IMG/VR virus record: IMGVR_UViG_2695420514_000012 | Length of the DNA stretch: 6,981 bases | Source of the DNA: a virus | Lineage: Duplodnaviria > Heunggongvirae > Uroviricota > Caudoviricetes | Reading direction: 5' to 3' (one strand) | In this document: in pieces, positions 2-6,981 of the stretch | Position numbering within the stretch: the stretch's first letter is position 1 | Layout of the letters: each line of letters begins with the position of its first letter | Program-made: the position numbers and the translations under genes | The notes under the pieces: generated by a model | What the model was told of the DNA's origin: nothing | Databases searched by the model: none | Seen by the model: only the letters and a program-made list of their open reading frames with translations

Positions 2-133
2 GCTGTTTACGGTGCGCAGGGGGTCAAAGTGCCACTGAATGATGCGCTTCTTCAGTGGGAGAAGGAGCATACAGAAGGCACCTCAGATCCATTTGCTGAG
101 ATTGAGAAGGCATTATTTGTTGCTGCTCGGTGA
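2..133 (+). CDS. 3' end of an upstream gene (partial, start lies outside the window); probably the tail assembly chaperone (G-T type) by synteny
   Basis: Open frame from position 2 to TGA at 131-133, translating to AVYGAQGVKVPLNDALLQWEKEHTEGTSDPFAEIEKALFVAAR*. Same strand and similar GC to the tail genes downstream. The identity as the T/GT chaperone is inferred only from its position upstream of the tape measure gene; I do not recognise the sequence itself. Confidence 0.4.
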   Translation, partial: AVYGAQGVKVPLNDALLQWEKEHTEGTSDPFAEIEKALFVAAR

Positions 134-142
134 TCTTTTCAC

Positions 143-173
143 TTGACTGGATTATTATTCCCATTTTATTGAG
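143..173 (+). promoter_or_regulatory. Putative sigma70-type promoter for the moron ORF
   Basis: TTGACT at 143-148 is a near-consensus -35 hexamer. The -10 is ambiguous: TTTTAT at 164-169 or TATTGA at 167-172 in the AT-rich stretch about 15-18 bp downstream. The assignment is weak and an upstream promoter could drive this gene instead. Confidence 0.25.
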
Positions 174-190
174 AAAGTAAGGAAACATTG

Positions 191-532
191 ATGGAATTTT
201 TACTTATTTCAATAGTTTTGGGACTAATTCCAGCTATTATTGCGAAAAGCAAAGGTCGCTCATTTTTAGGATGGTGGGTATATGGTGCGATGATCTTTAT
301 TGTTGCTCTGGTTCATTCGCTGGTAATCCAAAGAGATGAGAAGGCACATGAACAACAAATGGTAAGCAATGGCATGAAGAAATGCCCTTACTGTGCGGAG
401 TTGATCAAAGAAGAGGCTATTAAATGTAAGCATTGCGGTAGTGATTTAATTTGCAATGCAGATAGTTCCGTTTCACAAAAAACGGATGATGAATATCTTC
501 AGGAAGCAAGGCGTAAGGCCGGACTTCTTTAA
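191..532 (+). CDS. Hypothetical small membrane protein with two predicted TM helices and a C-terminal CxxC-x10-CxxC zinc ribbon (moron gene)
   Basis: ATG at 191 is preceded by AAGGA (179-183) at 7 nt spacing; the ORF track start at 188 is a TTG one codon upstream. Stop TAA at 530-532. The protein [51 protein letters not shown]... has two hydrophobic segments (about aa 3-18 and 25-46) separated by the basic loop KSKGRS, then CPYC(aa 65-68)...CKHC(aa 79-82), then an acidic tail. The coding region is visibly more AT-rich than all flanking tail genes. Function is unknown. Confidence 0.7.
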
Positions 533-540
533 AGAATACA

Positions 541-564
541 AAAACCGCTTCGGCGGTTTTTTTT
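541..564 (+). terminator. Rho-independent (intrinsic) terminator downstream of the moron ORF
   Basis: AAAACCGC-TTCG-GCGGTTTTTTTT: a 4-bp GC stem (545-548 with 553-556) extendable by A:U pairs (541-544 with 557-560), a UUCG tetraloop (549-552), and an uninterrupted T8 tract (557-564). It lies 9 nt after the moron stop and 10 nt before the tape measure start. Confidence 0.75.
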
Positions 565-574
565 CGTCCGGAGA

Positions 575-3500
575 ATGAGTGTGGCGACATTACGTGAACT
601 GATTATTAAAATCTCGGCAAACTCCCGGTCATTCCAGTCAGAGATCTCCCGGGCTTCGCGTATGGGGCAGGATTACTACCGCACCATGCAGAACGGAGGC
701 CGACAGTCTGCTGCTGCATCCCGTGAAATGCGGCGTGCACTGGCAGAAGTGACGGATCAGATAAATACAGCTAAATCTTCGGCACTGAATATGGCTGGGG
801 CATTTGCCGGGGCTTTTGCTACCGGTCATCTTATTTCTCTCGCCGATGAGTGGAATTCAGTAAATGCCCGTCTGAAGCAGGCCTCACAGTCCAGTGATGA
901 TTTTCAGGCATCACAGCGTGAATTAATGGCGATCAGCCAGAGAACGGGGACGGCGTTTTCTGATAACGCCAGCCTTTTTGCCCGTTCTGCAGCTTCCATG
1001 CGGGAGTATGGTTACAGTTCTGAGGAAGTACTGAAAGTCACCGAGGCGATCTCTACTGGCCTGAAATTATCCGGTGCCAGTACAGCAGAAGCCAGTTCGG
1101 TGATCACGCAGTTCAGTCAGGCTCTGGCGCAGGGGGTGCTGCGCGGTGAAGAGTTTAACTCGGTGAATGAGAACGGCGATCGTGTTATTCGTGCGCTGGC
1201 TGCGGGAATGGGAGTTGCCCGTAAGGATCTGAAGGCCATGGCGGATAACGGAAAGTTAACTGCCGATAAGGTTGTTCCTGCACTGATTAGTCAGCTTGGG
1301 GCATTACGTGATGAATATGCGGCAATGCCTGATACGGTTTCATCCTCTGCAACCAAAGTTGAAAACGCCTTTATGGCCTGGGTTGGTGGTGCGAACGAGG
1401 CAAGCGGAGTGACGAAGACGCTCTCCGGTGTGCTGAATGGTATTGCAGGCAATATTGACACCGTGGCAACCGCTGCCGGTGCTCTGGTTGCTGTCGGGGT
1501 AGCCCGATATTTTGGCAATATGGCGGCTTCTGCTGGATCTGCAACTGCCGGATTAATTACTGCAGCCAGAAACGAAGTAGCTCTTGCGGAAGCGCAACTC
1601 CGGGGGACACAGATAGCAACCGCCAGGGCGCGTGCGGCGGTTTATCGTGCGCAACAGGCGGTTGTTGCTGCTCGCGGTACCGAAAGGCAGGCAGCAGCAG
1701 AAGCGAAGCTGACAGTTGCCCAGGCGTCGCTTACCCGTAATATTGCGGCCAGAACAGCGGCACAGACAACGCTGAATAATGTTACGTCAGTGGGGAGCCG
1801 TCTGTTAAGTGGTGCGCTGGGGTTGGTTGGTGGTGTGCCGGGACTCGTCATGCTGGGGGCGACGGCTTGGTACACAATGTATCAGAATCAGGAGCAGGCC
1901 AGAGAATCTGCACGCCAGTATGCCGCAACAATCGACGAAATTCGCCAGAAAACGTCGGCAATGTCGCTTCCTGAAACGTCAGATAATGAAGAAAAGACGC
2001 GGCAGGCACTGAAGGAGCAGAACAGGTTAATTGACGAGCAGAAAAGTAAGATCAAATCCTTACAGGAAAAAATTGCCGGCTATCAGTATGTGCTGGCAAA
2101 CCCGGGCTGGACAACCGATAACGGTTTTATGATTAACCATATGACGTCGGTAAAAACTGTCACAGAAGGGCTTGCAGAAGCAACAAATCAACTGGCAGTT
2201 GAACAGTCTCGCCTAACTCAAATGCAGGGTAAAGCGCAATCCATTCAGGATGTGCTTGCCGGGCTGGAGGAGCGGCGGGTTGCGTTGATCCGTCAACAGG
2301 CAGCGGAACAAAACAAAGCGTATCAGTCCATGTTGATCATGAATGGGCAGCATACCGAGTTTAATCGCCTTCTCGGGCTTGGTAATGAATTACTTCAGCA
2401 GCGACAGGGGCTGGTGAATGTACCGTTACGGCTGCCACAGGCCACCCTGGATGATAAACAGCAGACCGCACTGAATAACAGCGAGCGCGAACTGGCTCTG
2501 TCCCGCCTGAAGGGGGAAGCCCGTGAGCGTGCCCGACTGGGTTATGCTGCGGATGATCTCGGCTTTGTGGGAGAGGCGTATCAGACAGCCAGACAGAATT
2601 ATATCAATAACTCACTGGATGCCTGGCGAAATAACCAGGCAAATAAACCCAAAGCGCATAAAAAGACCGAAGCGGAAAAAACAGAAGATATTTATAAACG
2701 GCTGATTAAACAGCAAAAAGAACAAATAGCACTGGCAGGTCAGAATACTGAACTGGCCAGGATGAAATATCAGGTCAGTCAGGGCGAATTATCAACCCTG
2801 TCAGAAGCGCAGAAAAAAACGCTTTTACAGAATGCGGCACTCATCGACCAGAAAAAGATTCGTGAGCAGCTTGCCGCGTATGAAAGCAGTCTGGCGGACA
2901 GTAATGCCAGCGCCCGGGCATCTGACGACGCGCAGTTGCTGGGATATGGTGAAGGCTCACGGATGCGTGAACGACTCCAGGAAATGTGGAGTATCCGGCA
3001 GGCGTTTGAGCAGAAAAATAACGAGCTGCTGAGACAGTATCAGGCCGGAGAAATTGAAGAAGCCCTGTGGAAACAGGAAAAATCGCTGAATGAAAAATAT
3101 CTGGAAGAGCGTCTCAGCGATCAGCAGGATTATTATGCAAAGGCTGATGCTTTACGCAGTGACTGGAATGCCGGACTCCAGGAGGGGCTGACGAACTGGG
3201 CAGACAGTGCCACCGATTATGCTTCGCAGGCGGCAGATGCTGTCGTTTCCACTATGGACGGGCTGGTATCAAATATTTCCGATGCACTGGCCGGAAATGT
3301 TGTGGACTGGCGAAACTGGGGGAGTTCAATCCTCCAGGAAGTTTCAAAAATTCTGATGAACGCTGCCATCGTTAACGGGCTGAAGTCACTTTCCAAAAGC
3401 ATGTCCGGTGCCGGAGGATGGCTTGGTACGGTCGGCGACTGGCTTTCCGGTGCAGTGGCAAACGCAAAAGGTGGTGTTTACACATCGGCAAATCTGAGTG

Positions 3501-3820
3501 CTTACAGTAACACTATTGTGGATACACCGACGTATTTTGCTTTTGCGAAAGGTGCCGGGCTGATGGGCGAGGCCGGGCCTGAAGCTATCATGCCACTGAC
3601 ACGGGCAGCGGACGGCTCTCTTGGGGTCAGAGCCATTGGCAATGTGAATGGTGGCGGGGGATTTGTTTATTCTCCCGTGTATCACATCAGTATTCAGAAT
3701 AAAGGGAGCAATGGCGAGATAGATACGCAGTCAGCTAGGGGGCTGGTGGATCTGATCGACAGCAGGGTTGTGTCAATTATGCAGTCATCACGTCGGGACG
3801 GAGGATTATGCAGTGCCTGA
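575..3820 (+). CDS. H: Tail length tape measure protein (lambda gpH-like C-terminus; 1081 aa)
   Basis: Single 3246-nt ORF ending TGA at 3818-3820. The C-terminal third (roughly from ...DWNAGLQEGLTNWADSATDY... through ...GAGGWLGTVGDWLSGAVANAKGG...) resembles the lambda H C-terminal region as I recall it. The N-terminal part is Ala/Gly/Ser-rich and helical like a tape-measure core; there is a hydrophobic Gly-rich segment (LLSGALGLVGGVPGLVMLGATAWYTMY) and a long Q/E/K/R-rich predicted coiled coil. It sits immediately upstream of M-L-K-I-J. Start is ambiguous: ATG 575 has GGAG only 1 nt upstream, whereas the in-frame GTG at 581 has canonical 7-nt spacing. Confidence 0.92.
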   Translation: MSVATLRELIIKISANSRSFQSEISRASRMGQDYYRTMQNGGRQSAAASREMRRALAEVTDQINTAKSSALNMAGAFAGAFATGHLISLADEWNSVNARLKQASQSSDDFQASQRELMAISQRTGTAFSDNASLFARSAASMREYGYSSEEVLKVTEAISTGLKLSGASTAEASSVITQFSQALAQGVLRGEEFNSVNENGDRVIRALAAGMGVARKDLKAMADNGKLTADKVVPALISQLGALRDEYAAMPDTVSSSATKVENAFMAWVGGANEASGVTKTLSGVLNGIAGNIDTVATAAGALVAVGVARYFGNMAASAGSATAGLITAARNEVALAEAQLRGTQIATARARAAVYRAQQAVVAARGTERQAAAEAKLTVAQASLTRNIAARTAAQTTLNNVTSVGSRLLSGALGLVGGVPGLVMLGATAWYTMYQNQEQARESARQYAATIDEIRQKTSAMSLPETSDNEEKTRQALKEQNRLIDEQKSKIKSLQEKIAGYQYVLANPGWTTDNGFMINHMTSVKTVTEGLAEATNQLAVEQSRLTQMQGKAQSIQDVLAGLEERRVALIRQQAAEQNKAYQSMLIMNGQHTEFNRLLGLGNELLQQRQGLVNVPLRLPQATLDDKQQTALNNSERELALSRLKGEARERARLGYAADDLGFVGEAYQTARQNYINNSLDAWRNNQANKPKAHKKTEAEKTEDIYKRLIKQQKEQIALAGQNTELARMKYQVSQGELSTLSEAQKKTLLQNAALIDQKKIREQLAAYESSLADSNASARASDDAQLLGYGEGSRMRERLQEMWSIRQAFEQKNNELLRQYQAGEIEEALWKQEKSLNEKYLEERLSDQQDYYAKADALRSDWNAGLQEGLTNWADSATDYASQAADAVVSTMDGLVSNISDALAGNVVDWRNWGSSILQEVSKILMNAAIVNGLKSLSKSMSGAGGWLGTVGDWLSGAVANAKGGVYTSANLSAYSNTIVDTPTYFAFAKGAGLMGEAGPEAIMPLTRAADGSLGVRAIGNVNGGGGFVYSPVYHISIQNKGSNGEIDTQSARGLVDLIDSRVVSIMQSSRRDGGLCSA

Positions 3821-4154
3821 GTCTGAAGTTTTTAACTGGATCCCCCGCGAGGGGATGGAGACGACACGAAAGCCATCTGTTATTACAGTAAAGTTCGGTG
3901 ACGGATATGAACAGCGACGGGCTGGTGGTCTGAATGCGGATCTGAAAACCTTTAAACCGGTATTTCGTGTCACAGATGAATATTCCCGCGCCGCGCTGGA
4001 CAGTTTTTTATCCCGTCATGCCGGGATGCGTGCTTTTTTGTGGCGCCCGCCAAAACACAACAGGACTGTCAGGGTTGTCTGCAGGGAGTGGAGTACTTCG
4101 GATAATGCCATGTATACCGATTTTAACTGTACCTTTGAAGAGGTCACTCACTGA
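3813..4154 (+). CDS. M: Minor tail protein M (tail tip assembly)
   Basis: GTG at 3813 is preceded by GGAGGA (3800-3805) and overlaps the H stop by 8 nt; stop TGA at 4152-4154. The product is about 113 aa and carries ...KFGDGYEQRRAGGLNADLKTF...FLWRPP..., recognisably homologous to lambda gpM (109 aa) though diverged. The ORF-track start at 3768 is an in-frame upstream extension inside H and is not used; an ATG at 3855 is a less likely alternative start. Confidence 0.85.
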   Translation: MPESEVFNWIPREGMETTRKPSVITVKFGDGYEQRRAGGLNADLKTFKPVFRVTDEYSRAALDSFLSRHAGMRAFLWRPPKHNRTVRVVCREWSTSDNAMYTDFNCTFEEVTH

Positions 4155-4852
4155 TGCAGGATATACAACAGGAAACACTGAATGAGTGTACAAAAGCGGA
4201 GCAATCCGCACTGGTCGTGCTCTGGGAAGTCGATCTGACCGAAGTCGGTGGCGAGCGTTATTTTTTCTGTAATGAGCAGAACGAAAAAGGTGAGTCAGTC
4301 ACCTGGCAGGGGCGACAGTATCAGGCGTACCCTATTCAGGGAAGCGGCTTTGAGATGAACGGCAAAGGAGCCAGTGCAAGACCAACGCTGAAAGTCTCTA
4401 ACCTGCACGGCATGGTCACCGGGATGGCGGAAGACCTGCAAAGTCTGGTCGGCGGAACGGTGGTCAGGCGTAAGGTTTACGCCCGTTTTCTGGATGCGGT
4501 GAACTTCGTCAACGGAAACATCGAGGCAGACCCGGAGCAGGAGGCGATCAGCCGCTGGCGCATCGAGCAGTGCAGCGAACTGAGCGCAGTGAGTGCCTCC
4601 TTTGTACTGTCCACGCCGACGGAAACGGATGGCGCTGTTTTTCCGGGACGTATCATGCTGGCCAACACCTGCACCTGGACCTATCGCGGCGATGAGTGCG
4701 GTTATCACGGTCCGGCGGTCGCGGATGAATATGACCAGCCAACGTCCGATATCACGAAGGATAAATGCAGCAAATGCCTGAGCGGCTGTAAGTTTCGCAA
4801 TAACGTCGGCAACTTTGGCGGCTTCCTTTCCATTAACAAACTTTCGCAGTAA
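4154..4852 (+). CDS. L: Minor tail protein L (tail tip assembly, Cys-rich C-terminus)
   Basis: ATG at 4154 overlaps the M stop (cTGATG); stop TAA at 4850-4852. The 232-aa product is the same length as lambda gpL, and the sequence MQDIQQETLNECTKAEQSALVVLWEVDLTEVGGERYFFCNEQNEKG... through ...CSKCLSGCKFRNNVGNFGGFLSINKLSQ is close to lambda gpL as I recall it. Confidence 0.93.
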   Translation: MQDIQQETLNECTKAEQSALVVLWEVDLTEVGGERYFFCNEQNEKGESVTWQGRQYQAYPIQGSGFEMNGKGASARPTLKVSNLHGMVTGMAEDLQSLVGGTVVRRKVYARFLDAVNFVNGNIEADPEQEAISRWRIEQCSELSAVSASFVLSTPTETDGAVFPGRIMLANTCTWTYRGDECGYHGPAVADEYDQPTSDITKDKCSKCLSGCKFRNNVGNFGGFLSINKLSQ

Positions 4853-4856
4853 TCCC

Positions 4857-5600
4857 ATGACAGAGACAGAATCAGCGATTCTGGCGCACACCCGGCGATG
4901 TGCGCCAGCGGAGTCGTGCGGCTTCGTGGTGAGAACGCCGGAGGGGGACAGATATTTTCCCTGCGTGAATATCTCCGGTGAGCCGGAGGATTATTTCAGG
5001 CTGTCGCCGGAGGACTGGCTGCGGGCAGAGCTGCAGGGTGAGATTGTGGCGCTGGTCCACAGCCACCCCGGTGGTCTGCCCTGGCTGAGTGAGGCTGACC
5101 GGCGGTTGCAGGTGCAGAGTGATTTGCCATGGTGGCTGGTCTGCCGGGGGGCGATTCACAAGTTCCGCTGTGTGCCACATCTTACCGGGCGGCGCTTTGA
5201 GCACGGGGTGACGGACTGTTACACGCTGTTCCGGGATGCTTATCATCTGGCGGGGATTGAGATGCCGGATTTTCATCGTGAGGATGACTGGTGGCGTCAC
5301 GGTCAGAATCTCTATCTGGATAATCTGGAGGCCACAGGGCTGTATCAGGTGCCGTTGTCATCAGCACAACCGGGCGATGTGCTGCTGTGCTGCTTTGGTT
5401 CATCGGTGCCGAATCATGCCGCCATTTACTGTGGTGACGGCGAGCTGCTGCACCATATTCCTGAACAACTGAGCAAACGAGAGAGGTATACCGACAAATG
5501 GCAGCGACGCACACACTCCCTCTGGCGTCACCGGGCATGGCACGCATCTGCCTTTACGGGGATTTACAACGATTTGGCCGCCGCATCGACCTTCGTGTGA
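4857..5600 (+). CDS. K: Tail tip assembly protein K (MPN/JAMM-like plus NlpC/P60-like domains)
   Basis: ATG at 4857 lies 4 nt after the L stop; stop TGA at 5598-5600. The product MTETESAILAHTRRCAPAESCGFVV... contains an HSHPGG...SEAD JAMM-type motif and, downstream, a Cys (GVTDCYTLF) and His (PNHAAIY) consistent with an NlpC/P60 fold, as described for lambda gpK. The ORF-track start at 4815 is an upstream in-frame extension inside L. Confidence 0.9.
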   Translation: MTETESAILAHTRRCAPAESCGFVVRTPEGDRYFPCVNISGEPEDYFRLSPEDWLRAELQGEIVALVHSHPGGLPWLSEADRRLQVQSDLPWWLVCRGAIHKFRCVPHLTGRRFEHGVTDCYTLFRDAYHLAGIEMPDFHREDDWWRHGQNLYLDNLEATGLYQVPLSSAQPGDVLLCCFGSSVPNHAAIYCGDGELLHHIPEQLSKRERYTDKWQRRTHSLWRHRAWHASAFTGIYNDLAAASTFV

Positions 5601-6145
5601 AAACGGGGGCTGAAGCCATCCGGGCGCTGGCCACGCAGCTTCCGTCGTTTCGCCAGAAACTGAATGAGGGCTGGTATCAGGTGCGCATTGCCGGACGTGA
5701 TGCAGGCGAAAATGAATTATCAGCCCGTCTTAATGAACCGCTGGCAAATGGTGCCATGATCCATATTGTGCCGCGCCTGGCGGGAGCCAAAAGTGGCGGT
5801 GTGTTTCAGGCGGTGCTGGGTGCGGCGCTGATTGCGGTGGCATGGTGGAACCCCGCAGGTTGGTTGGGGGCTGCCGCAATTACAGGAATGTATGGTGCGG
5901 GGGCCAGTATGATCCTTGGCGGTGTGGCCCAGATGCTGGCCCCTAAACCCAGAACTCCCCGCACACAAACAACGGATAACGGTAAGCAGAACACGTATTT
6001 CTCGTCACTGGACAATATGGTTGCCCAGGGCAATGTTCTGCCTGTTCTGTACGGTGAAATGCGCGTGGGGTCACGTGTGGTCTCTCAGGAGATCAGCACG
6101 GCAGACGAGGGGGACGGTGGTCAGGTTGTGGTGATTGGTCGTTGA
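5498..6145 (+). CDS. I: Tail assembly protein I
   Basis: ATG at 5498 with GAGAGG upstream; stop TGA at 6143-6145. The product MAATHTLPLASPGMARICLYGDLQRFGRRIDLRVKTGAEAIRALATQL... ends ...NTYFSSLDNMVAQGNVLPVLYGEMRVGSRVVSQEISTADEGDGGQVVVIGR, matching lambda gpI as I recall it, with a Gly/Ala-rich hydrophobic linker in the middle. It overlaps the 3' end of K by 103 nt in a different frame. Confidence 0.9.
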   Translation: MAATHTLPLASPGMARICLYGDLQRFGRRIDLRVKTGAEAIRALATQLPSFRQKLNEGWYQVRIAGRDAGENELSARLNEPLANGAMIHIVPRLAGAKSGGVFQAVLGAALIAVAWWNPAGWLGAAAITGMYGAGASMILGGVAQMLAPKPRTPRTQTTDNGKQNTYFSSLDNMVAQGNVLPVLYGEMRVGSRVVSQEISTADEGDGGQVVVIGR

Positions 6146-6163
6146 TGAAAAACGTTTTATGTG

Positions 6164-6192
6164 AAACCGCCTCAGGGCGGTTTTGTCGTTTC
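6164..6192 (+). terminator. Terminator-like hairpin in the I-J intergenic spacer (possible attenuator or RNA-stability element)
   Basis: AAACCGCC (6164-6171) pairs with GGCGGTTT (6176-6183) around loop TCAG (6172-6175), giving 8 bp with 5 G:C pairs, followed by the T-rich but interrupted tail TGTCGTTTC. It is weaker than the 541-564 terminator because much of the U-tract is used in the stem. Confidence 0.35.
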
Positions 6193-6205
6193 TGGAGCGA
6201 GAGGA

Positions 6206-6981
6206 ATGGGTAAAGGTGGCAGTAAGGGGCATACCCCGCGCGAAGCGAAGGACAACCTGAAATCATCCCAGCTGCTGAGCGTGATAGACGCCATCAGTGA
6301 AGGGCCGATTGAAGGTCCGGTGGACGGATTAAAAAGTGTGCTGCTGAACAGTACGCCGGTGCTGGACAGTGAGGGGAATACCAATATCTCCGGTGTCACG
6401 GTGGTGTTCCGGGCAGGTGAGCAGGAGCAGACACCGCCGGAGGGATTTGAATCCTCCGGTTCAGAAACCGTTATCGGTGCAGAATTAAAATATGACAATC
6501 CGCTCACCCGGACCATCACGTCGGCAAACATCGACCGTCTGCGCCTGACCTTCGGTGTGCAGGCACTGGTGGAAACCACTTCAAAGGGGGACCGGAATCC
6601 TTCGGAAGTTCGCCTGCTGGTTCAGATACAACGTAATGGTGGCTGGGTGACGGAAAAAGACATCACCATTAAGGGCAAAACCACCTCGCAGTATCTGGCC
6701 TCGGTAGTGGTGGATAACCTGCCGCCGCGCCCGTTCAGTATCCGGCTGCGCAGGATGACGCCGGACAGCACCACAGACCAGCTGCAGAACAAAACGCTCT
6801 GGTCGTCATACACCGAAATCATCGATGTGAAGCAGTGCTACCCGAACACGGCACTGGTCGGCGTGCAGGTGGACTCTGAGCAGTTCGGCAGCCAGCAGGT
6901 GAGCCGTAATTATCATCTGCGCGGGCGCATTCTGCAGGTGCCGTCGAACTATAACCCGCAGACGCGGCAATACAGCGGTAT
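6206..6981 (+). CDS. J: Central tail fibre / host specificity protein J (5' portion, runs off the window end)
   Basis: ATG at 6206 with GGAG (6194-6197) at 8 nt spacing; open to the window end, so it is absent from the ORF track, which lists only stop-terminated ORFs. Translation MGKGGSKGHTPREAKDNLKSSQLLSVIDAISEGPIEGPVDGLKSVLLNSTPVLDSEGNTNISGVTVVFRAGEQEQTPPEGFESSG... is near-identical to the lambda gpJ N-terminus as I recall it. Confidence 0.93.
   Translation, partial: MGKGGSKGHTPREAKDNLKSSQLLSVIDAISEGPIEGPVDGLKSVLLNSTPVLDSEGNTNISGVTVVFRAGEQEQTPPEGFESSGSETVIGAELKYDNPLTRTITSANIDRLRLTFGVQALVETTSKGDRNPSEVRLLVQIQRNGGWVTEKDITIKGKTTSQYLASVVVDNLPPRPFSIRLRRMTPDSTTDQLQNKTLWSSYTEIIDVKQCYPNTALVGVQVDSEQFGSQQVSRNYHLRGRILQVPSNYNPQTRQYSG

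Follow-up and report, generated by a model that had tools for sequence, protein, structure and literature searches.

Siphophage tape measure proteins (TMPs) act as rulers, at 0.145-0.15 nm per residue (PMC5099701). In phage lambda, whose tape measure gpH (the product of gene H) is 853 aa long, the tail is built of 31 gpV discs, the C-terminus of gpH binds gpI and gpH* forms a trans-envelope channel (PMC12617516); injection of the lambda genome uses ManYZ (PMC6832061, PMC13190303). The corresponding protein of phage HK97 is gp16 (NP_037710, 1089 aa). Work by Cumby et al. in 2015 reportedly gave the TMP, PtsG and FkpA connected roles in HK97 genome injection. HK97 gp15 is a known superinfection-exclusion gene, and HK97 tails are longer than those of lambda, a point that is not used as evidence here.

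The window analysed in this study is the whole of a 6,981-nt stretch of DNA from a tailed phage (Caudoviricetes; IMG/VR record IMGVR_UViG_2695420514_000012). It contains an intact, uninterrupted open reading frame (575..3820 on the plus strand; 1081 aa from ATG 575) whose product exceeds lambda H by 226-228 aa, as a sequence-only reading of the window had correctly observed. That reading further took the protein for a recombinant joined within H; the comparisons below indicate instead that it is very probably a standard siphophage tape measure of the HK97 gp16 family, encoded in an HK97-like prophage that carries L-K-I-J genes of lambda type.

GTG 581 (1079 aa) is a likelier start codon than ATG 575 (1081 aa), because the GGAG at 570-573 is spaced 7 nt from the former and only 1 nt from the latter. 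Initiation at the GTG yields the N-terminus MATLREL, as in HK97 gp16, and a length of 1079 aa that agrees with RefSeq usage and with the annotation of phage PhiR49_2. Only 12 prolines occur in the 1081 aa; no tandem repeats were found in the tape measure gene, and a defence-system search with its product returned no match.

Table 1. Features of the 6,981-nt window, with the evidence by which each was placed.
Feature	Position (nt)	Strand	Evidence
3' end of tail assembly chaperone T frame	2..133	+	phi467 match, CREC-2 equivalent
Inserted moron upstream of tape measure gene	97..566	+	Not present in phi467 or PhiR49_2
Tail length tape measure gene, HK97 gp16 type	581..3820	+	ORF, PHROG 339, three Pfam domains, HK97 gp16 alignment
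N-terminal tape-measure core, Pfam TMP_3, aa 85-274	827..1396	+	E = 7.8e-58
Hydrophobic Gly-rich, transmembrane-like segment, aa 406-435, LLSGALGLVGGVPGLVMLGATAWYTM	1790..1879	+	Kyte-Doolittle, conservation
Q/E/K-rich, predicted helical spacer, aa 438-862	1886..3160	+	Composition, low-confidence AlphaFold2 model
Lambda-family C-terminal tape-measure domain, TIGR01541, aa 724-1042 (counted from GTG)	2750..3706	+	E = 6e-65
Gly-rich, largely non-helical C-terminal region, presumed tip-binding end	3377..3817	+	17% Gly, conserved motifs
Minor tail protein M, Pfam Phage_min_tail	3813..4154	+	GTG start, 8-nt overlap with end of tape measure gene
Lambda-type tail tip block	4134..6981	+	Single blastn match to lambda, 89.1% over 2873 nt

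Family membership and modules of the tape measure protein

BLASTP against HK97 gp16 produced one alignment, which pairs aa 3-1081 with residues 1-1084 at 55% identity, and the PHROG 339 profile is matched by query positions 1-1078 over positions 1-1114 of its 1123. The two proteins are collinear end to end, agree in length within 1% and are encoded at the same place, after the G/T chaperone genes and ahead of M. TMP_3, Phage_HK97_TLTM (aa 397-688) and Tape_meas_lam_C (aa 863-934), all of which score far above the Pfam cut-offs, follow one another in the same order as in HK97 gp16 and in the TMPs of HK544 and of Stx1 phages. Along this shared frame, aa 1-240 are about 90% and aa 700-920 are 50-75% identical to HK97 gp16, and identity falls to 21-42% across most of aa 320-680. 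The last 45 aa also differ from those of HK97 (38% identity), carrying the RRDGG of lambda and Stx phages; the GEAGPEAIMPL motif is common to both proteins.

Close and distant members of the family are abundant. At the DNA level the gene is 95-98% identical over 100% of its length in 10 phage records, among them Evi, phi467 (97.6%) and PhiR49_2 (96.6%), and NCBI gives the name "phage tail tape measure protein" to proteins up to 99% identical. Among complete E. coli genomes, 894 contain at least 80% of the window, with a best match of 96.3%; the gene is full length in all 80 of the viral loci compared, and 17,401 representative clusters match the protein at E <= 1e-10. Relatives with 27-56% identity that align collinearly over the full length share the same layout and span 1027-1124 aa; the protein is longer than lambda H because the whole HK97-type family is longer, not because it is a fresh chimera. 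The gene is intact and well catalogued, and many hundreds of E. coli prophages carry it with little change; being routine, correctly annotated and present in a large fraction of E. coli genomes, it has little importance as a discovery.

Outside the family, the N-terminal ~440 aa, including the hydrophobic Gly-rich segment, align to 8rk3 chain A (1158 aa; E = 7e-25), and aa 67-298 align to 9occ chain M (780 aa; E = 4e-24). Both chains come from unrelated siphophages, and in the same phmmer search of the PDB the rest of each gave no significant alignment to the window protein.

The protein has three collinear modules, namely a TMP_3 core, a hydrophobic segment with a predicted helical spacer of about 425 aa behind it, and a lambda-family C-terminal domain with a Gly-rich, presumed tip-binding end. 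In the first, the NCBIfam model tape_meas_nterm (TIGR02675) falls inside the TMP_3 domain, whose length is invariant (189 +/- 1 aa in 17 diverged relatives). Ala, Gly and Ser make up 38% of aa 1-400, in line with the sequence-only reading, which had also rightly placed a hydrophobic Gly-rich segment (at nt 1803..1883) a few nucleotides from the position found here. This segment opens the Phage_HK97_TLTM domain, is likewise present in HK97 gp16, and combines a 19-aa Kyte-Doolittle peak of 1.81 with 21% Gly. It forms a conservation island, being 65% identical to HK97 (aa 401-440) against 30-42% in its flanks, and the family alignment shows no variation at G417, G418 and G421.

Glutamine, glutamate and lysine account for 28.5% of the spacer, compared with 13.5% of the first 400 aa. 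In 17 relatives the spacer measures 424.5 +/- 11 aa, despite a mean identity to the window protein of 26-40%: the family keeps the length of the spacer, not its sequence, which is the behaviour expected of a molecular ruler. The region had been described as a long Q/E/K-rich coiled coil, and its composition bears out the Q/E/K richness. Canonical heptad windows in aa 438-862, by contrast, show no excess over shuffled sequences in a crude test (z = 1.0); this weakens the coiled-coil part of the description and is compatible with non-heptad helical bundles. An AlphaFold2 model, built from a shallow alignment of 13 sequences that are all at least 94% identical, places 83% of aa 1-965 in helix at a mean pLDDT of 40.6, so that even its secondary structure is no more than indicative.

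In the third module, the TIGR01541 match reaches 219.5 bits (cut-off 104.75), and the Tape_meas_lam_C Pfam core occupies nt 3161-3376 (E = 6.5e-14). The Gly-rich region beyond it carries the family-wide motif NAKGGVY...GEAGPEAIMPLTR, as seen in the family alignment, and closes with a terminal helix ending in RRDGGLCSA; identity across the family is 68% in aa 961-1000.

Lambda-like parts of the locus

The window protein and lambda gpH share their role, their gene position and the kind of tip partners with which they are encoded (M, L, K, I and J). In both, a homologous C-terminal domain (Tape_meas_lam_C/TIGR01541) precedes a Gly-rich region, and the extreme C-termini are similar. The one significant BLASTP match to lambda H covers aa 755-1080 (25% identity, E = 5e-20), phmmer against the PDB aligns aa 651-1080 to lambda gpH in 8iyk (chain H), and only columns 785-1079 of the family profile match lambda H, at residues 581-851, with an hhalign probability of 99.2%. 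These three comparisons agree with the earlier statement that resemblance to lambda H is limited to the C-terminal part, here approximately the last 300 aa. No relationship extends to the N-terminal 70%, even when profiles are compared: gpH has a TMP_2 core in place of TMP_3 plus Phage_HK97_TLTM, and TMP_2 (PF06791) finds no match in the window protein even at E <= 10. The first two thirds do therefore represent a different type of tape measure, as had been suggested. HK97 gp16 itself gives a shorter match to lambda H, of 198 aa at 32% identity. Tape_meas_lam_C occurs behind several different N-termini, and tape measures are modular over deep time.

The end of the protein aligns to gpH residues 818-849, which the Ur-lambda structure shows bound to gpI (PMC12617516). 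Over the last 45 aa the two proteins are 33% identical, with the motifs QN.G.NG.I and RDGGL common to both, and the C-terminal 95 aa of the gpI encoded in the window are 87% identical to lambda gpI; the C-terminus of the window protein presumably binds the tip through gpI. When the extreme C-terminus was set against gpI type in four phages, the TMP identities of 33%, 38%, 43% and 18% were suggestive, four cases being too few for co-variation.

The flanking genes place the lambda-like DNA more precisely. Gene order runs from the T chaperone through the tape measure to M-L-K-I-J, and the full context recurs in PhiR49_2 and in CREC-2, a fully annotated HK97-like prophage. Positions 2-96 match the end of a phi467 gene annotated beside a tail assembly chaperone, the CREC-2 equivalent of which is 'phage tail assembly protein T' in RefSeq. 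The start of M agrees with the phi467 and PhiR49_2 annotations; M is 40% identical to its lambda counterpart and 64% identical to that of an Stx1 phage, and it is not lambda-like in DNA. HK97 has L-K-I-J genes of its own type, whereas those of the window (L, 4154-4852; K, 4857-5600; I, 5498-6145; J, from 6206) are of lambda type, L being 93% and I 78% identical to lambda. The blastn match to lambda begins 20 nt before the end of M. A sharp, recent-looking junction with lambda-like DNA thus lies where M stops and L starts (~nt 4151), not inside H, and the true lambda/HK97-type mosaic junction can now be placed at the M/L gene boundary.

Recombination and integrity of the tape measure gene

According to the sequence-only reading, a lambda-H-type C-terminal third had been joined to a foreign core, with the breakpoint inside H. 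The confinement of lambda H likeness to the C-terminal ~300 aa fits such a join, as does the proximity of lambda-type DNA, with L-K-I-J at 89% DNA identity. A segment of H recently derived from lambda would, however, be about as similar to it as L is (93%); the lambda-like part of H, a few hundred bases upstream of L, is 25% identical and has no DNA match, which disfavours such an origin. Moreover, the junction with lambda-type DNA maps to the M/L boundary, the three-domain layout is shared with HK97 gp16 and with thousands of diverged relatives, and similarity to known TMPs, phi467 and PhiR49_2 included, is uniform over the whole length. These observations make a join within H extremely improbable and remove it as a false lead. 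The lambda likeness of the C-terminal third reflects old common ancestry of a catalogued domain rather than a recent join. For a gp16-family protein, the difference from lambda H would be a product of old modular evolution, in which one C-terminal domain and a tip of the J/I/L/M type go with varied N-terminal cores, and allele exchange within the HK97 family would add further variation.

HK97-type alleles do exchange segments inside H, as exemplified by HK544 and by two of the viral loci, L063 and L078. HK544 matches HK97 (94-100%) in nt 581-850 and again from ~2858 to the end, and is window-like (84-100%) in between; L063 and L078 depart from the window in M and the C-terminal third of H together. 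Since identity to HK97 along the protein also ranges from 21% to 100%, the window allele could itself be a fairly recent recombinant of two HK97-type alleles joined near aa 91 and aa 730-760, one parent being represented by HK544 or HK97. HK544, with its HK97-like ends and window-like middle, is however an equally possible recombinant. The arrangement of the window is in addition the majority one (69 of the 80 loci are at least 85% identical to it in every segment present), and the Stx1 phages are evenly diverged over the gene (51-85%), without a sharp step; we regard a recombinant origin of the window allele as doubtful, with a modest chance of being right. Decay is another matter: many E. 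coli prophages are cryptic, and the window by itself includes neither head nor lysis genes, so the gene might be the remnant of a defective prophage and no longer functional. Against this stand the uninterrupted 3.2-kb frame, the intact tail genes on its flanks, the near-identical alleles of the isolated temperate phage PhiR49_2 and the Stx2f phage phi467, and a length that is tightly conserved across the family, all of which render loss of function very unlikely.

Tail length, genome entry and the upstream moron

By analogy with lambda, TP901-1 and HK97, on which the following scheme is modelled, several copies of the gp16-family tape measure would be held by their C-termini in the tip complex and coated by the G/GT chaperones, and the tube protein would polymerise up to the TMP N-terminus. 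As polymerisation would stop there, the length of the protein would set that of the tube, at ~0.15 nm per residue; it is a fair inference that the tube would be ~26% longer than that of lambda, with ~39 discs against 31, and at 39-40 discs would measure some 165-170 nm. In the literature searched, no measured tail length was found for HK97 or any close relative, phi467, Evi, PhiR49_2 and the vB_Eco prophage records included. At infection the TMP would be ejected, and its hydrophobic segments may help to build a channel across the envelope. For the window protein, homology is in this way the source of the predictions on tail length, copy number, cleavage in the Gly-rich region (which in lambda yields gpH*), membrane insertion and receptor dependence. 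Dependence on PtsG and FkpA is not transferable from HK97, given the 21-42% identity over most of aa 320-680.

Upstream of the tape measure gene lies an inserted moron with a GC content of 0.36-0.42. Its ORF (191..532) has its own ribosome-binding site; the product, a small membrane protein of 113 aa, combines two hydrophobic helices with a zinc ribbon and matches Pfam Zn_ribbon_3 and PHROG 8436. The insertion occupies the slot of the HK97 gp15 exclusion gene; the protein has no similarity to gp15. A hairpin terminator (-12.8 kcal/mol) follows at 540-566, and a promoter scan gave no convincing candidate for the moron, with two sites against 1.5 expected and neither upstream of the ORF. Weak PADLOC matches of the moron (E about 1e-3) fell in the zinc-ribbon region and were disregarded as motif-level similarity.

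More speculatively, the variable middle of the TMP (aa ~320-700) and the moron might form a functional pair like the HK97 TMP and gp15, the moron protein residing in the lysogen's inner membrane and blocking injection by any phage with a tape measure that relies on the same entry route. We consider this pairing unlikely. Were it correct, diversification and exchange of the TMP middle would amount to a switching of inner-membrane entry factors and an escape from exclusion proteins, and the moron would encode a new superinfection-exclusion protein, unrelated to gp15 and located in the same genomic slot. The analysis flags an uncharacterised moron at the position of a known superinfection-exclusion gene; the element was found in 9 of 80 related loci.

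An HK97 gp16-type tape measure protein

The window encodes an ordinary tail length tape measure protein (TMP) of the HK97 gp16 type, with a match to PHROG 339 that spans residues 1-1078 and a single end-to-end BLASTP alignment, at 55% identity, to HK97 gp16 (1089 aa), the TMP of HK97. Its three Pfam domains recur in identical order in HK97 gp16, in the related phage HK544 and in a Stx1-phage TMP, whereas lambda H consists of TMP_2 plus Tape_meas_lam_C; the expectation of a core different from that of lambda was thus borne out, TMP_3 and Phage_HK97_TLTM standing where lambda has TMP_2.

The protein is also longer than the 853-aa lambda H, so that the size comparison made in the sequence-only reading was right. 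Translation more likely begins at GTG 581 than at ATG 575, given the Shine-Dalgarno spacing and the annotations of all relatives: GGAG at 570-573 lies 7 nt upstream of the former and just 1 nt from the latter, and the resulting 1079-aa product, whose N-terminus (MATLREL) is as in HK97 gp16, is the form annotated by RefSeq and in the record of the isolated temperate phage PhiR49_2. Both the Ala/Gly/Ser-rich N-terminal 400 aa (38% by composition count) and the hydrophobic, Gly-rich segment described earlier are present. The long Q/E/K-rich coiled coil held up in its composition but not as a continuous coiled coil, since a crude heptad test found no excess of canonical heptad windows over shuffles within aa 438-862 (z = 1.0); in an AlphaFold model of low confidence (mean pLDDT 40.6), the protein is 83% helical as far as aa 965.

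This TMP is already known and routinely annotated. NCBI curated models cover both of its ends (tape_meas_nterm and tape_meas_lam_C), and proteins up to 99% identical, named "phage tail tape measure protein" by NCBI, occur in E. coli, Shigella and E. albertii, with a 96% identical one in E. fergusonii. Over 100% of its length the gene is 95-98% identical to its counterparts in ten phage records, among them the Stx2f phage phi467, Evi and PhiR49_2; the full-length gene is found in all 80 of the 80 best viral-contig loci, and of 5426 complete E. coli genomes 894 contain 80% or more of the window. In strain CREC-2 the gene lies within a fully annotated HK97-like prophage adjoining potB (terminase, portal, HK97-family protease, capsid, tail tube, chaperones G and T, TMP, M, L, K, I, J, Lom and Stf).

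Features of the window and of its tape measure protein (aa counted along the ORF)
Feature	Window (nt)	Protein (aa)	Remarks
Insertion	97..566		GC 0.36-0.42
Insertion ORF	191..532		113 aa; own ribosome-binding site
Hairpin terminator	540-566		feature of the insertion
TMP ORF	575..3820 (+)	1-1081	uninterrupted
TMP_3		85-274	Pfam
Phage_HK97_TLTM		397-688	Pfam
Hydrophobic, Gly-rich segment	1790-1879	406-435	Kyte-Doolittle peak 1.81
Gln/Glu/Lys-rich stretch		438-862	28.5% by composition count
tape_meas_lam_C		724-1042	NCBI model, 332 positions; aa counted from GTG 581
Tape_meas_lam_C		863-934	Pfam
Gly-rich end		935-1081	17% Gly
M start (GTG)	3813		8-nt overlap with TMP gene end (3813..3820)
K/I overlap	5498..5600		103 nt
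I/J hairpin	6163..6185		GC-rich

Relation to lambda H and the M/L boundary

BLASTP (aa 755-1080, 25% identity), phmmer against the PDB (aa 651-1080, matching lambda H chain 8iyk_H) and a profile built from 17 diverged members of the family (columns 785-1079 only; probability 99.2%, E = 1.2e-19) agree that likeness to lambda H is confined to the C-terminal end, as had been noticed from the sequence; the N-terminal 70% of that profile has no match to lambda H. The accompanying proposal, that the protein is a recombinant joined within H, is not supported, as similarity to known tape measures is instead uniform along the whole length, reaching 95-98% in DNA and 99% in protein and running end to end with HK97 gp16. 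A recent join to lambda inside H was rejected, the lambda-like third being so distant from its counterpart; the match of HK97 gp16 to lambda H is shorter (198 aa at 32%). The lambda-like third is a matter of ancient shared domain ancestry and not of a recent join. An exhaustive HMMER search matched 17,401 representative clusters with E <= 1e-10. Many of these relatives, 1027-1124 aa long, are collinear over the full length although just 27-56% identical, so that the three-domain layout is old and stable.

The sharp mosaic junction is the M/L gene boundary, because lambda-like DNA begins there: blastn against lambda gives a single match (89.1% identity, window 4134 to 6981) that starts 20 nt before the M end and comprises L, K, I and the start of J, and in the lambda alignment the switch falls exactly at the M stop/L start (~4134..4156). 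Identity to lambda is 93% for L, 78% for I, 40% for M and 25% for H, and H and M have no DNA-level similarity to lambda.

A longer, TTG-initiated M ORF from 3768 probably does not mark the true start of that gene. The overlap between the K and I reading frames has the same length in the lambda annotation (K 14276-14875, I 14773-15444). Between I and J, the hairpin (AAACCGCCTCAGGGCGGTTT) resembles a terminator: it precedes a T-rich run that lies shortly before the J start at 6206, and its centroid stem folds at -14.3 kcal/mol (z = -1.9 vs shuffles).

Modular domains and allele exchange

Tape measures are modular over deep time. Tape_meas_lam_C also stands behind TMP_3 in 845-1038 aa proteins without the HK97 middle, and it follows TMP_2 in lambda and TMP_2 plus TMP_4 or unrecognised N-termini in other proteins; the TMP_3 core with its hydrophobic segment is shared with 8rk3_A and 9occ_M, otherwise unrelated siphophage TMPs.

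HK97-family alleles, moreover, swap segments inside H. Over nt 581-850 and again from ~2858 to the end, HK544 is the same as HK97 (94-100% DNA identity), but between these points it is 84-100% identical to the window, to which HK97 is there only 32-80% identical; in protein, the HK97 middle is only 21-42% identical over most of aa 320-680. In two viral loci (L063 and L078) the H C-terminal third (85% and 68%) and M (72%) diverge jointly from the window, with the remaining H at 83-98% and L at 90-91%, which points to joint exchange of the H C-terminus and M. The window arrangement is that of the majority, 69 of 80 viral loci showing 85% identity or more in each of the segments they have.

Tail length, injection and the upstream insertion

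The mode of action is proposed by homology to the TMPs of other phages. TMP length sets tail length at ~0.145-0.15 nm per residue (PMC5099701), and the lambda tube has 31 gpV discs (PMC12617516); scaling from lambda (853 aa) to 1079 aa would give ~39 discs and a tube about one quarter longer, so that a tail longer than that of lambda, as first predicted, is plausible. A ruler role fits the spacer that separates the hydrophobic segment from the C-terminal domain; among 17 relatives this spacer keeps a length of 424.5 +/- 11 aa despite being merely 26-40% identical to the window. Conservation is concentrated in islands, namely the TMP_3 core, the NAKGGVY...GEAGPEAIMPLTR block and the hydrophobic Gly-rich segment, and the last of these is the best candidate to enter the membrane at injection. 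For HK97, injection reportedly depends on linked roles of the TMP, inner-membrane PtsG and the periplasmic chaperone FkpA (Cumby et al. 2015). ManYZ is the partner of the lambda TMP (PMC6832061; PMC13190303), and after ejection gpH*, lambda gpH cleaved in its Gly-rich region, makes an envelope-crossing channel (PMC12617516). The window protein has a C-terminal domain homologous to that of gpH, and its end aligns with the lambda gpI-binding stretch, with the motifs QN.G.NG.I and RDGGL in common.

Upstream of the TMP gene, window 97..542 is a low-GC insertion relative to phi467 and PhiR49_2, which lack it; of 80 related viral loci 9 carry it, as does CREC-2. Its product combines two hydrophobic helices with a CxxC...CxxC zinc ribbon (Pfam Zn_ribbon_3) and belongs to PHROG 8436, listed there as of unknown function. 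The insertion shares its slot, between the T chaperone and TMP genes, with the HK97 gp15 moron, whose product, a superinfection-exclusion protein of the inner membrane, acts on the incoming tail (PMC3594210). The two sequences are unrelated, and an exclusion function for the 113-aa product is speculation. Similarity to phi467 ends at nt 96, ~12 codons short of the T stop codon (131-133), so that the insertion appears to replace the last codons of the T frame.
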